36,695 nt of DNA from a virus (taxonomy: Duplodnaviria; Heunggongvirae; Uroviricota; Caudoviricetes), in IMG/VR virus record IMGVR_UViG_2531839665_000016, positions 1 through 36,695 of that record. One strand, 5' to 3'. Positions 25,217-29,699 of this stretch are shown in pieces. Made by a program: the position numbers and the translations under genes. The notes beneath the pieces were generated by a model, which had not been told where the DNA came from, ran no database searches, and saw only the letters and a list, made by a program, of their open reading frames with translations. Position 1 is the first letter of the stretch. Every line of letters begins with the position of its first letter.

Positions 25217-25539
25217 ACTTTCAGGCCCCTCTCATGTAACCAGTGGGCTGCACGCAGCCTGCCGTTTTCCTCACCGGCAAGCAGTGCGCGGATAATCCCG
25301 ACCGCCTCGCTGTCGTCGTCCTTCACCGCGGTATGAAGAGTTATCCCCCGGGCCACGCCACGCTTTATCGTGATGACGCCTTTTTTCTCCAGTGCGCGAA
25401 GATGCTCCACCGCTGCATTCACCGAACGGTATCCCAGCATGGTTGCCACCTCCTGATTGGTTGGCGGAAAGCCACGTTCTTGCTGGTAAGAAATCAGCAT
25501 ATCCAGCACCTGCTGCTGGCATTGAGTTAACGTCGTCAT
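25213..25539 (-). CDS. LexA-N-terminal-like DNA-binding protein
   Basis: 108 aa; winged-helix resembling the LexA DNA-binding domain (QQVLDMLISYQQERGFPPTNQEVATMLGYRSVNAAVEHLRALEKKGVI). Confidence 0.5.
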   Translation of the reverse strand: MTTLTQCQQQVLDMLISYQQERGFPPTNQEVATMLGYRSVNAAVEHLRALEKKGVITIKRGVARGITLHTAVKDDDSEAVGIIRALLAGEENGRLRAAHWLHERGLKV

Positions 25540-26188
25540 GCCGCCATCTCCCTGACCAGTTTTTCCGCCTGCTGGCGAACCTGCGCCAGAAAGGCCTCAC
25601 CACATGCCTCAAGTTCATCGCGCCCGATGTAGCTGATTGCCGATCCCTTCCAGGTCTTGTCGAAAACAGCAATAGCACCAGCGAAGAAAGCACCTGTCGG
25701 CACCTGCTTCTCGTCCTTCGGTATAAACCAGGCAGGTAGTTCAAAACCAATACGCCCGCGAATAAAAGCAATATGATCTGCATCTTCCGGCCACCACACT
25801 TCGCTGGTAGCTGCTTTGATCAAGAAAACATAGCGCCCGCCTTTATCACGCATGGCACTGGCATGCTTCATGATGTAACGCATGCCGGTGATGTATTGCC
25901 CCTCATGCTGACTGGCGCGGCTGTATGGGGGATTACCAAAGGCAGCACCTTTAAGCTCCGCAAGACGTTCTGACCAGTCATGCGCCAGCGCGTTGTCTTC
26001 CGCCGTGTAATACGCGGCACATTTGGCGTTATCACCGTCAGTGAACAGATCCAGAACAAACGGGCCAAACAGGGTGTTAATTCCCCAGAAAATGTTGTCC
26101 GGCGTGCGCCACTGATCGCCCACTTCCTTCAGTTCATGGGCTGGTTTGTTCCGCAGTTCCACCAGCGCCTGCCAATATTTATTACTCA
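25536..26188 (-). CDS. Phage N6-adenine DNA methyltransferase (Dam-like)
   Basis: NPPY catalytic motif (GNPPYS). Start chosen at MSNKYW (ATG 26188, GGGGG Shine-Dalgarno, abutting the upstream stop) rather than the ORF-track start at 26222. Confidence 0.7.
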
Positions 26189-26683
26189 TTAAGCCCCCAC
26201 GTAATTCCCTGACAGATACCACTCATCACCCGATACAGCGCACTTGCTGCTTTTCCGTAAGCACCGCTCACGGCGCGCCAGAAAATTGTTTCGTTCTGGC
26301 TGGGAGTGGCTTTCACGGAATGCCGCCATCCACACGGTTGCAGCACGACGGTATAAGCCCCTGGACTCCAGTTCTTCAGCCTGGCGGGTCAGGCACAAAA
26401 TTACCCGTGGATCGTTAGTGCCGACATAGAAATTGCGCACAGGTCTGGTTTCACGAACTGGTTGTGGTTCCGGCTCCTGCGCTCTCTCAGTCAGGCGCGG
26501 GAAATGTCTGCGTGTATCTCCTTCACAACGGTGAGCCACACGCCCACTCTGACGTAACTTGCTTGCTGACTGCAGAACGCGCTGCCGTGAGTAACCTGCA
26601 AAAGCATCCGCAATGTCTCCGGAAGTACACCCCGGATGGGCTTCAATGAATTTCTGAACGTCATTTAACAGACTCATGATCAC
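26189..26683 (-). CDS. PerC/Pch-family transcriptional regulator-like protein
   Basis: 164 aa; C-terminal ELESRGLYRRAATVWMAAF resembles the PerC signature (KGLWRRAA..W); N-terminal helix-turn-helix-like region. Confidence 0.45.
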   Translation of the reverse strand: MIMSLLNDVQKFIEAHPGCTSGDIADAFAGYSRQRVLQSASKLRQSGRVAHRCEGDTRRHFPRLTERAQEPEPQPVRETRPVRNFYVGTNDPRVILCLTRQAEELESRGLYRRAATVWMAAFRESHSQPERNNFLARRERCLRKSSKCAVSGDEWYLSGNYVGA

Positions 26684-27621
26684 CCCCTGAATCCTGCCGG
26701 GATCTGGCTGTAGTCCACATTGTCGTAACTGGATTTGAAGTACGGGTCTTCGCGTTTTTCGGTGTACGTGCTTACGGACGGCGATAAGCGCAGGGAAAGC
26801 TCATCCCATTTTTCCCGCAGCTTCGACGGGCTGAGCACGTTACGGCACCAGAACGGATCGCGGCTGACGCGGCTGTACATCTCGCAGATTTGTTTGTGAG
26901 TACGACCATCCTGCACACACATCAGGCGAATTTCGTTTGCCCAGGCTGTCCAGTTCGGTTCTTTGGGACGAACCACCTCGCCGTCACATTCGGCAGCCTG
27001 CTCGTACAGGGCGATGATTTTTTTCCAGAGCCACTGTGCGCAGGTCAAATCATCCTGCGTCCCCCACTGGCGCTTTTTAGGGCTGAATACAACCGCATCA
27101 GGATGGCGAGTTAAAAAATCCTGTTCAGCCGTCTGCGTGTCCGGTTGCGAAGCGTCCGGACGAGAAGGTTTTTTATCTGACGGATCATGTTTTGATTTTA
27201 CTGACGGATCCCCGCCAGATTCTGACGGGTGAAAACCTGCTTTTTTGCCAGATTTCGACGCATCAAATTTTGACGGGTCAGATTTTGATGCGTCAGATTT
27301 TGACGGGTCAGAATCTGACAGTTGAGAAAATGCCGCTGCCTGAAGCTTCGCAACGTTAAGCTGATAAACATTCGACGCATTGCGGTTACCCTGGCGACGC
27401 GCCTTACGCGTTAACCAGCCTTCTGCTTCCAGCCGTGCGATAGCCGTTCTGACGGTACTCATCCCCGCGCCAATCTGACGGGCAATGGTTTCAATTGATG
27501 GCCAGCACACACCTTCGTCATTACTGAAATCAGCCAGGCGGGCCATAATTGCCACGCTGGATAACTTCATGCCTGATGCAGCGCAACCATCCCATACATA
27601 GCCGGTTAATTTAGTGCTCAT
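26680..27621 (-). CDS. Putative replication initiation protein (N-terminal HTH; iteron array encoded in the linker)
   Basis: 313 aa; N-terminal winged-helix-like region; internal repetitive SDSDPSKSDASKSDPSKFDASKSG encoded by DNA direct repeats; occupies the lambda O-equivalent position downstream of cro and the cII-position genes. Confidence 0.5.
   Translation of the reverse strand: MSTKLTGYVWDGCAASGMKLSSVAIMARLADFSNDEGVCWPSIETIARQIGAGMSTVRTAIARLEAEGWLTRKARRQGNRNASNVYQLNVAKLQAAAFSQLSDSDPSKSDASKSDPSKFDASKSGKKAGFHPSESGGDPSVKSKHDPSDKKPSRPDASQPDTQTAEQDFLTRHPDAVVFSPKKRQWGTQDDLTCAQWLWKKIIALYEQAAECDGEVVRPKEPNWTAWANEIRLMCVQDGRTHKQICEMYSRVSRDPFWCRNVLSPSKLREKWDELSLRLSPSVSTYTEKREDPYFKSSYDNVDYSQIPAGFRG
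27176..27321. repeat. Iteron-like direct repeats (about 7-8 copies of a GATTTTGACGGGTCAGA-type unit, 16-20 bp period); candidate phage replication origin
   Basis: Repeats read directly from the sequence: tctgacggatca, actgacggatcc, tctgacgggtga, ttcgacgcatca, ttttgacgggtca, ttttgatgcgtca, ttttgacgggtca, tctgacag. Confidence 0.55.
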
Positions 27622-27630
27622 GACCGACCT

Positions 27631-27969
27631 CTATTTCCCTGAATTTACGACGAAACTGTTCGAGCGGACTGAAGCATTCATGCTCATAACCTTCGCGGAG
27701 GTAGATAACCCGTTGTGTTTCCGGTTCCCAACGAATGACTCTGACGGGCACTCCGTAGTGATCTTTGAACCAGCGGTTAACTTGTCGCAAAGGACTGCCT
27801 CCTTCTGCCGGTTGAAATCACCCACAGCCCACTCTGCAAAGCTGTGGGTTACAATTTCCCTGTCACCTGGTACATTCACTGCATAGCAATACTCCACCTT
27901 CGCTTTTCCACCCGGAACCGGAAGCGCAATCAGTTGCGAGCGACGGTAGTGTGTTGTTAAACTGTTCAT
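27631..27969 (-). CDS. Hypothetical early protein
   Basis: 112 aa ORF co-oriented with the early-right operon, 4 nt overlap with the upstream gene; no family recognised. Confidence 0.35.
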
Positions 27970-28851: not shown

Positions 28852-29526
28852 ATGAAAACAATCCATGACATCCGGCGGTCTAACGCCAGAAAACTGAGAG
28901 ATGGTGTTGGCGGGAATTCTTCCTTTGCCACTATGATTGATCGCGAGCCAACCCAGACCAGCAGGTTTATGGGAGATGGTGCTACTAAAAATATCGGTGA
29001 CAGCATGGCACGACACATCGAAAAATGTTTCGACCTGCCTGTAGGATGGCTCGATCAAGAACACCAGACAACGAACATCACAAAAAAACCTGATGTTTCA
29101 ATCACTAATAAACAAATCACATTAGTCCCTGTCATATCATGGGTACAGGCCGGAGCATGGAAAGAAGTTGGATATTCTGAGGTTGATTTGAGCACAGCAG
29201 AAACGTATCCCTGCCCTGTACCCTGTGGGGAAATGACTTATATCTTGCGGGTGATAGGTGATTCAATGATTGATGAGTACCGCCCGGGAGACATGATTTT
29301 TGTCGATCCTGAAGTACCTGCCTGCCACGGTGACGACGTTATTGCATTGATGCACGATACAGGTGAAACCACCTTCAAAAGGTTGATAGAAGATGGGACA
29401 CAGCGTTATCTCAAAGCGTTAAACCCAAACTGGCCTGAGCCTTACATTAAGATCAACGGTAATTGCTCTATAATTGGTACTGTGATTTTCTCAGGAAAAC
29501 CAAGAAGATACAAAATCAAAGCCTAA
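28852..29526 (+). CDS. CI-type prophage repressor (HTH + S24 LexA-like autopeptidase domain)
   Basis: 224 aa; C-terminal GDSM (Ser nucleophile) and TFKRL (Lys) consistent with the S24 Ser-Lys dyad; divergent from cro. Confidence 0.8.
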   Translation: MKTIHDIRRSNARKLRDGVGGNSSFATMIDREPTQTSRFMGDGATKNIGDSMARHIEKCFDLPVGWLDQEHQTTNITKKPDVSITNKQITLVPVISWVQAGAWKEVGYSEVDLSTAETYPCPVPCGEMTYILRVIGDSMIDEYRPGDMIFVDPEVPACHGDDVIALMHDTGETTFKRLIEDGTQRYLKALNPNWPEPYIKINGNCSIIGTVIFSGKPRRYKIKA

Positions 29527-29565: not shown

Positions 29566-29598
29566 TTGACAATGTACCTTTGAGATACATAATGTACC
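29566..29598 (+). promoter_or_regulatory. pL-like early-left promoter with putative operator half-sites
   Basis: TTGACA (29566-29571), 16-nt spacer, CATAAT (29588-29593); AATGTACC direct repeat (29571-29578 and 29591-29598) shares the GTAC core of the cI-cro palindrome. Confidence 0.5.
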
Positions 29599-29699
29599 CA
29601 AGAGAAACAACAAACAGGCAGGACGCCCACGAAGTAGCCGCCTGGGGCATATGAAGTCCAGGATGATTCGTTAGCGGATGATTTCAGTGGAGAGAATAG

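Follow-up and report, generated by a model that had tools for sequence, protein, structure and literature searches.

The stretch of DNA analysed here, referred to as the window, comprises the 36,695 nucleotides (nt) at positions 1 to 36,695 of the virus record IMGVR_UViG_2531839665_000016. It is an SfII/SfIV-like lambdoid phage; Escherichia phage Kati and the Shigella phages SfII and SfIV are 98% identical to it over 2 kb. One gene of its early operon encodes a replication initiator of 313 amino acid residues (aa), and an array of short direct repeats lies in the middle of this gene, in the part coding for the linker between an N-terminal domain (N-domain) and a C-terminal domain (C-domain). 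This array is quite probably the phage replication origin, situated within its own initiator gene as ori-lambda is situated in gene O. For lambda, the location of the origin within the initiator gene is textbook knowledge, and the initial annotation of the window had suggested the same logic; comparative evidence (synonymous sites, linkage of the array to the N-domain, and position) now supports it, since the repeats are conserved as DNA and not only as protein.

The predicted presence of a repeat array within this early gene is borne out above chance, five copies being arranged in tandem and a further three or four being dispersed (Table 1). At 27249-27312, Tandem Repeats Finder detects a period of 15 base pairs (bp; 4.3 copies, 81% matches, score 86) as well as one of 30 bp (2.1 copies, 88%, score 100), and a repeat search returns five copies with a spacing of exactly 15 bp and degenerate copies at 27175, 27199, and 27220. 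The tandem block has a period of 15 bp and not of 16-20 bp as initially assigned; the coordinates given at that time, 27176-27321, mark the right place, although the array is slightly longer and extends from about 27145 or 27163 to 27327. Its dispersed copies are spaced at 21-33 bp and span 27145-27237. Within the gene, the array occupies nt 295-477, directly 3' of the N-domain and in the part coding for the predicted disordered linker. Every unit contains the core GAYSCRTCA (coding strand), which is the right half of the short palindrome TGAC-SS-GTCA. In the whole window there are 7 occurrences of the core TGAYGSGTC versus 1.21 +/- 1.01 expected, 0 of 100 shuffles reaching 7, and four of the seven cores are located no more than 60 bp from one another. 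The unit TTTTGACGGGTCAGA, from which the initial annotation started, has exactly two occurrences, A1 and A3. As had also been stated there, the repeats encode a Ser/Asp/Lys linker, which consists of S-D-(P/A)-S-K repeats, all units sharing one frame of the gene. Extra copies of TCTGACGG at 27448 and 27474, in other frames, were dropped; they are absent from 73 of the 82 homologues described below and are probably due to chance. A search for DnaA boxes between 26500 and 27800 gives a single match with one mismatch (27021), which is under the window background of about 2 per kb.

The homologue set employed for comparison consists of 80 prophage loci from about 30 enterobacterial genera, with N-domains that are 61-100% identical, plus four phages, and codon analyses refer to 82 homologues. 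Repeats are found in every prophage locus and phage collected. One might expect that such repeats matter as protein only, as a flexible Ser/Asp/Lys linker or a peptide motif, the DNA repeats being a by-product of slippage or duplication; the single frame of all units, the conserved peptide ESGGDPSV, and a copy number that varies as in simple-sequence linkers would fit such an explanation. The codons, however, do not. The serine of D-x-S is encoded by TCA in 446 of 503 cases (89%), versus 17% of the other Ser codons in the same genes, and the serine preceding Asp by TCT in 219 of 258, versus 12% elsewhere, while Lys codons of the repeats are AAA in 241 of 242 and Val codons GTA in 75 of 80 cases. 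For conserved N-domain residues with four or more codons, which serve as a control, the commonest codon is used in 48% on average and in 79% at most. In a gap-free conserved block of 20 codons, the pairwise rate of using the same codon for the same amino acid is 0.876, versus 0.421 in the N-domain (Mann-Whitney p = 1e-7), although amino-acid identity is similar (0.74 in the block and 0.78 in the N-domain), and for distant pairs the rates are 0.843 and 0.383, respectively. Synonymous codons are near-fixed and position-specific over some 30 genera, whereas N-domain codons of the same genes vary freely. Nucleotides are even kept where the residue changes in a non-conservative manner, as in TCA/CCA/GCA (S/P/A), TCA/TTA/CAA (S/L/Q), GAC/CAC (D/H), and the replacement of DP by ER. 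In unit B, third positions are 0.92-1.00 identical at six of seven codons and 0.61 identical at the Pro codon (76 genes), even across D/H and S/P exchanges, and in unit C1, Asp is encoded by GAT in 77 of 77 genes and Val by GTA in 76 of 77. The region is also predicted to be disordered. We consider an importance as protein alone highly improbable, and the codon patterns argue that the repeats are under selection at the DNA level. Conservation at the protein level only, which the initial annotation had set against an origin, was looked for in the 82 homologues and the opposite was found.

The two domains flanking the linker have different affiliations. In an AlphaFold model, aa 1-98 form a helix-turn-helix with a beta wing (predicted local distance difference test, pLDDT, 75-90), the closest folds of which are MarR/ArsR-type winged helices, and searches of the PDB by sequence and by fold yield generic winged helices of the MarR type as the sole matches to the N-domain, the C-domain having none. 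Residues 102-159 constitute the sole long low-confidence stretch of the model (pLDDT < 50) between confidently modelled domains, and this linker is predicted to be disordered. The C-domain (aa 166-277) is 39% identical to the O proteins of lambda, 434, and HK140 (tblastn, E 1e-17), and in a BLASTP comparison with lambda O, aa 70-277 of the initiator align with 31% identity (E 7e-26). PF04492 (Phage_rep_O), which matches lambda O and phi80 gp15, gives no match in the window initiator. PHROG 391, 'replication initiation O-like', matches the initiator in its full length (phrog_391, aa 1-313, E 8e-136), and in the SfII record its counterpart is annotated as 'O protein family protein', while annotation in E. 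coli genomes reads only 'helix-turn-helix domain-containing protein' and NCBIfam yields no informative family for it. By its similarities, the initiator is a mosaic relative of O with an HTH_36 N-domain and a lambda-O-type C-domain. Its earlier assignment to a different initiator family is correct for the N-domain, which belongs to HTH_36 and not to PF04492, but not for the C-domain, which is a lambda O homologue.

Among the homologues, the C-domain is exchanged immediately 3' of the array, being of the lambda-O type, the Phg_2220_C type (PF09524), or others. At N-domain identities of at least 72%, 3-10 canonical units are kept whatever the type of C-domain (Kruskal-Wallis p = 0.67), and units vanish once the N-domains are less than about 66% identical (Spearman rho 0.56, p = 4e-8). 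In this comparison, the array is co-inherited with the N-domain and not with the C-domain, and the proposed origin is supported because the array tracks the N-domain while the C-domain is swapped. The same swaps, together with short matches to this junction alone in other helix-turn-helix genes (rows H184-H186), would also suit a recombination junction of exchangeable modules, the DNA of which is homogenised by crossovers with no protein bound. However, homogenisation should fix every position, yet conservation is focal, with a third-position identity of 1.00 at core codons and of 0.35 at the intervening Gly codon. Palindromic cores, a periodicity of 15 bp and 24 bp, and a conserved pair of GATC sites are left unexplained as well, and we judge it unlikely that a junction accounts for the conservation. 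A recombination junction and an origin are compatible and may coexist, ori-lambda being a classic hybrid junction.

In close relatives, 15-bp units are gained or lost in frame, leading to 0-9 units and to proteins of 282-337 aa (P0127, P0129, P0135, P0136, P0138, and P0167). In-frame ori deletions are known in lambda, and the unit-number variants recall lambda ori deletion mutants; variants without any tandem units may be replication-defective prophages. In E. coli ECDA1023 (L057, 1201044-1206280), the first 79 initiator residues (99% identical) are fused to terminase-like sequence. This fusion appears to resemble the ymfN fusion of e14, where the array seems to have been lost along with the remainder of the gene.

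In its organization, the window initiator resembles lambda O. Both genes belong to the pR-type operon, following cro and cII, and DNA-binding domain, direct repeats with dyad symmetry in the linker DNA, an A+T-rich stretch (in the window a candidate unwinding region), and a homologous C-domain occur in the same order. In lambda, the iterons are located at nt 349-435 of O, directly after PF04492, and the A+T-richest stretch of the gene (80-83%) adjoins the last of them. In contrast to the HTH_36 domain of the window initiator, the N-domain of lambda O is Phage_rep_O, and lambda has four iterons of 19-20 bp at a spacing of 20-24 bp, whereas the window has 15-bp tandem TGAC-SS-GTCA units and 24-bp GATC units. 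Furthermore, P follows O in lambda but not in the window, the A+T-rich stretch of the window is weaker, and lambda O ends in ...NTDWIYGVDL whereas the window initiator carries a DnaT-like tail. With phi80 gp15 the initiator shares a C-domain that is 36% identical (BLASTP E 4e-25), and gene 15 also contains in-gene repeats (nt 367-439) directly after the N-domain; it differs in its Phage_rep_O N-domain, in the lambda-P-family gene (gene 14) that follows, and in repeats of 21-bp period and unrelated sequence. An origin is supported by the position of the array, after the N-domain and before the A+T-richest stretch, which matches that in lambda O and phi80 gene 15. Similarly, the 'replication protein' of SfV, mEp460, and ST64B has an HTH_36 N-domain, in-gene repeats in an equivalent position, and a DnaT-like tail, lacks a loader, and is followed by PerC-like, Dam, LexA-DNA-binding-domain, and RusA genes. 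In contrast, this protein has 272 aa, its N-domain is without detectable BLAST similarity to that of the window, and in SfV and mEp460 there are five palindromic GTGCA-N5-T(T/G)CAC repeats (mEp460, L088:2543-2647). The proposed origin is also supported by the finding that, at an equivalent position, another HTH_36 subtype is accompanied by repeats of another sequence. Winged-helix Rep proteins of plasmids bind direct-repeat arrays beside an A+T-rich region, although plasmid iterons usually have 17-22 bp and are located outside the gene, and origin repeats within the initiator gene are also known for SPP1 G38P and for the 'replisome organiser' of TP901-1.

Both 24-bp units open with GATC, so that two conserved sites are 24 bp apart. 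At the second site, all 68 Asp codons are GAT, which makes up about 55% elsewhere, and GATC occurs 11.7 times per kb in the linker versus 3.4 times per kb in the remainder of the gene. Unit C1 is itself tandemly repeated in Proteus/Providencia relatives. The position of the A+T-rich stretch (27162-27204) is conserved, since in 58 of 77 homologues the 40-mer with the highest A+T content in the entire gene begins no more than 20 nt from there. The GATC pair and the nearby phage Dam gene, hinting at a control of the origin by methylation or SeqA, might alternatively indicate that the array is a cis site for another function, i.e., for another regulator such as the PerC-like protein, as a SeqA/Dam element, as part of an antisense gene, or as copy-control sites titrating the initiator. 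One antisense frame across the linker is open in 54 of the 82 genes, which would be in line with an antisense gene, but it is closed in 28, and hardly any homologue has one of the remaining four alternative frames open; an overlapping gene was rejected as the cause of the synonymous constraint, the antisense frame being kept as a minor rival only, for which a conserved start codon was not looked for. In addition, a PerC-like gene is present in only some homologues while a Dam-type gene occurs downstream of the initiator gene in many, no Rfam family is matched in the whole window, and the array tracks the N-domain of the initiator itself. Taken together, another cis function is improbable. In the window, an open reading frame (ORF) of 55 aa with QILTGQ repeats lies antisense to the array (27192-27359, plus strand), probably as a side effect of repeat composition.

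Several points weigh against an origin at this place. The 82 sequences share ancestry, and counts are not independent events, although the N-domain control has the same phylogeny. There is the antisense frame that is open in most genes, and the amino-acid sequence F(D/H)P(S/P)ESGGDPSV of the linker peptide is well conserved, too, so that the linker may have a role as protein. A+T content reaches a modest 70-73% in the A+T-rich stretch compared to 80-83% in lambda, and the 15-bp tandem period is shorter than that of typical iterons (19-24 bp), which puts neighboring cores on different faces of the helix. No origin is annotated in the SfII record, and in the searchable literature no published origin was found for SfII, SfIV, or e14, nor were HTH_36 iterons. 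Support for an origin is comparative.

The origin would function as follows. Transcription from the cro-side early promoter would provide the 313-aa initiator, whose winged-helix N-domain, probably as a dimer, would bind to the TGAC-SS-GTCA cores in the five tandem and the three or four dispersed units. The resulting nucleoprotein complex might then destabilise the adjoining A+T-rich, GATC-bearing 24-bp units (27162-27210), and the lambda-O-type domain together with the DnaT-like IPxGFRG tail would recruit the host helicase machinery without a phage-encoded loader. A plasmid search for an independent replicon of this kind yielded mostly prophages in large or mis-typed records. One circular record of 15,977 bp, NZ_CP148542.1 (L089), is lambda-dv-like and comprises cI, cro, an initiator gene with 52% identity, a DnaC-like gene, and further genes as far as those for lysis. 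The record, which has not been assigned any other type of replicon, is suggestive, but its initiator belongs to a different subfamily; it could be a natural plasmid on a related replicon or an assembly artefact.

That no P/DnaC-like gene follows had already been recognised from the sequence and is confirmed, as phmmer finds nothing similar to lambda P or to DnaC over a distance of about 2.6 kb from the window initiator, and the genes 3' of it are PerC-like, Dam, LexA-DNA-binding-domain, and RusA genes. The accompanying idea that loading may rely on host factors can possibly be narrowed down, since the initiator ends in the C-terminal motif of DnaT, the respective ends being ...DYSQIPAGFRG and, in E. 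coli DnaT, ...DSQIPPGFRG (dnaT, L001:3979-4518). In contrast to this likeness at the extreme C-terminus (8/9 residues), the DnaT N-terminal domain and the DnaT DNA-binding domain (PF17948) are absent from the window initiator. The database label 'primosomal protein' on the initiator gene is misleading, because the similarity to DnaT is limited to the last 9 residues. Within close DnaT orthologues, 104 of 105 end in IPxGFRG or IPxGFRGAK, the single exception ending in IPPGLRG, and among the more distant matches that have the size of DnaT and are listed as orthologues (32-49% identity), 15 of 16 show (I/V)PxGF(R/K) at or near the C-terminus. The tail is present in 45 of the 82 initiators, and none of these 45 has a lambda-P-like or DnaC-like gene up to about 1.9 kb downstream, whereas 12 of the 37 initiators without the tail do (Fisher p = 2e-5). 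Initiators with P adjacent end in lambda-O-like tails, e.g., ...HWNSPEAWENTL or ...DWNNTDW. The IPxGFRG tail occurs on three types of C-domain and on SfV-type initiators, and in 65 phage records. As a separate observation, many phage-type replication proteins of 270-540 aa with varied N-domains (P0277-P0379) carry a full homologue of the DnaT C-terminal domain, and they often end in IPxGFRG.

Due to the DnaT-like motif and its lack of co-occurrence with P/DnaC-like genes, we infer that the tail may link the origin complex to the host partner of DnaT and would thereby replace a phage loader. It is possible, but put forward only tentatively, that IPxGFRG is a short, portable motif which either was taken over from DnaT or is common to both proteins, and through which the origin complex of the phage makes direct contact with the host factor that partners the C-terminus of DnaT. 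This partner could be the hydrophobic DnaT-docking site of PriA or DnaB-DnaC. A 2026 paper on the preprimosome structure describes a small hydrophobic DnaT-PriA interface, whose residues are not named in the part of its text considered here, and states there that the way in which DnaT recruits DnaB/DnaC is unknown (PMC13377028). In a 2025 survey, 34 of 314 Enterobacterales lambdoid phages possess an O homologue but neither a helicase nor a loader, and the survey describes the replication of these phages as 'not yet understood' (PMC12315714).

With respect to its genomic context, the early operon runs leftward in the window from the cI/cro region, which corresponds to the rightward, pR-type operon in lambda terms. 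Its order on the minus strand is cro, cII (PF06892), DUF4222, and initiator, so that the initiator gene is the fourth gene and holds the lambda-like position downstream of cro and cII. Two overlapping ORFs in different frames, 27611-27790 and 27631-27969 (both minus strand), carry differing annotations in public records; the one of 59 aa is a strong DUF4222 match (E 9e-19), while no family is matched by the one of 112 aa, which is annotated in SfII. Two more tandem repeats, of two copies each, are located at 378-419 (22-bp unit, near the start of the window) and at 29571-29609 (20-bp unit, just downstream of cI).

Table 1. Coordinates of the repeat units, initiator domains, and neighboring genes in the window
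Feature	Position	Strand	Basis and remarks
Initiator gene, 313 aa	26680..27621	-	ORF list; PHROG 391 profile
N-terminal winged-helix DNA-binding domain, aa 1-95, HTH_36	27337..27621	-	PF13730, aa 23-70, E 4e-11
C-terminal domain, aa 166-277, lambda O / phi80 gp15 homologue	26791..27126	-	tblastn, BLASTP; pLDDT > 90
C-terminal peptide SQIPAGFRG	26683..26709	-	8/9 identical to E. coli DnaT C-terminus SQIPPGFRG
Tandem units A0-A4, five x 15 bp	27253..27327	.	+ strand consensus TTTTGAYGSGTCAGA; core TGAC-SS-GTCA; proposed initiator-binding iterons
A0 (codon register)	27313-27327		
A1 (codon register)	27298-27312		
A2 (codon register)	27283-27297		
A3 (codon register)	27268-27282		
A4 (codon register)	27253-27267		
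Unit B, dispersed, 21 bp	27217..27237	.	Coding strand GGT TTT CAC CCG TCA GAA TCT; same core
Unit C1, 24 bp	27187..27210	.	Coding strand GATCCGTCAGTAAAATCAAAACAT; core and conserved GATC 27207-27210
Unit C2, 24 bp	27163..27186	.	Coding strand GATCCGTCAGATAAAAAACCTTCT; core and conserved GATC 27183-27186
Doubtful ninth core	27145..27159	.	Coding strand CCGGACGCTTCGCAA; fits loose core pattern only
A+T-richest 30-40 bp of gene (70-73% A+T)	27162..27204	.	Candidate unwinding region; overlaps C1/C2
PerC/YfdN-like gene, 164 aa, next after initiator	26189..26683	-	PF06069, E 2e-9; not helicase loader
Phage Dam-family N6-adenine methyltransferase	25536..26222	-	PF05869, E 6e-45; two genes downstream of initiator
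cI	28852-29526	+	ORF list

The arrangement described here would be a variant of a well-known one, and a very common one in prophages of E. coli and Shigella, with array and N-domain both found in 1576 out of 5426 complete genomes of E. coli (about 29%). It would add a new pair of initiator and iterons, in which an HTH_36 domain goes with TGAC-SS-GTCA units of 15 bp and two conserved GATC sites. The more useful point seems to concern lambdoid phages that lack a loader, as the mutual exclusivity of tail and loader in this initiator family makes both O-only replication and the question of how DnaT leads to DnaB/DnaC experimentally addressable, and the DnaT-like tail offers a testable answer for the 'O-only' lambdoid phages. 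If the proposed role of the tail is true, such phages would load the replicative helicase via the restart primosome of the host, a loader of the P/DnaC type would be unneeded, and the conserved extreme C-terminus of DnaT would gain a function.

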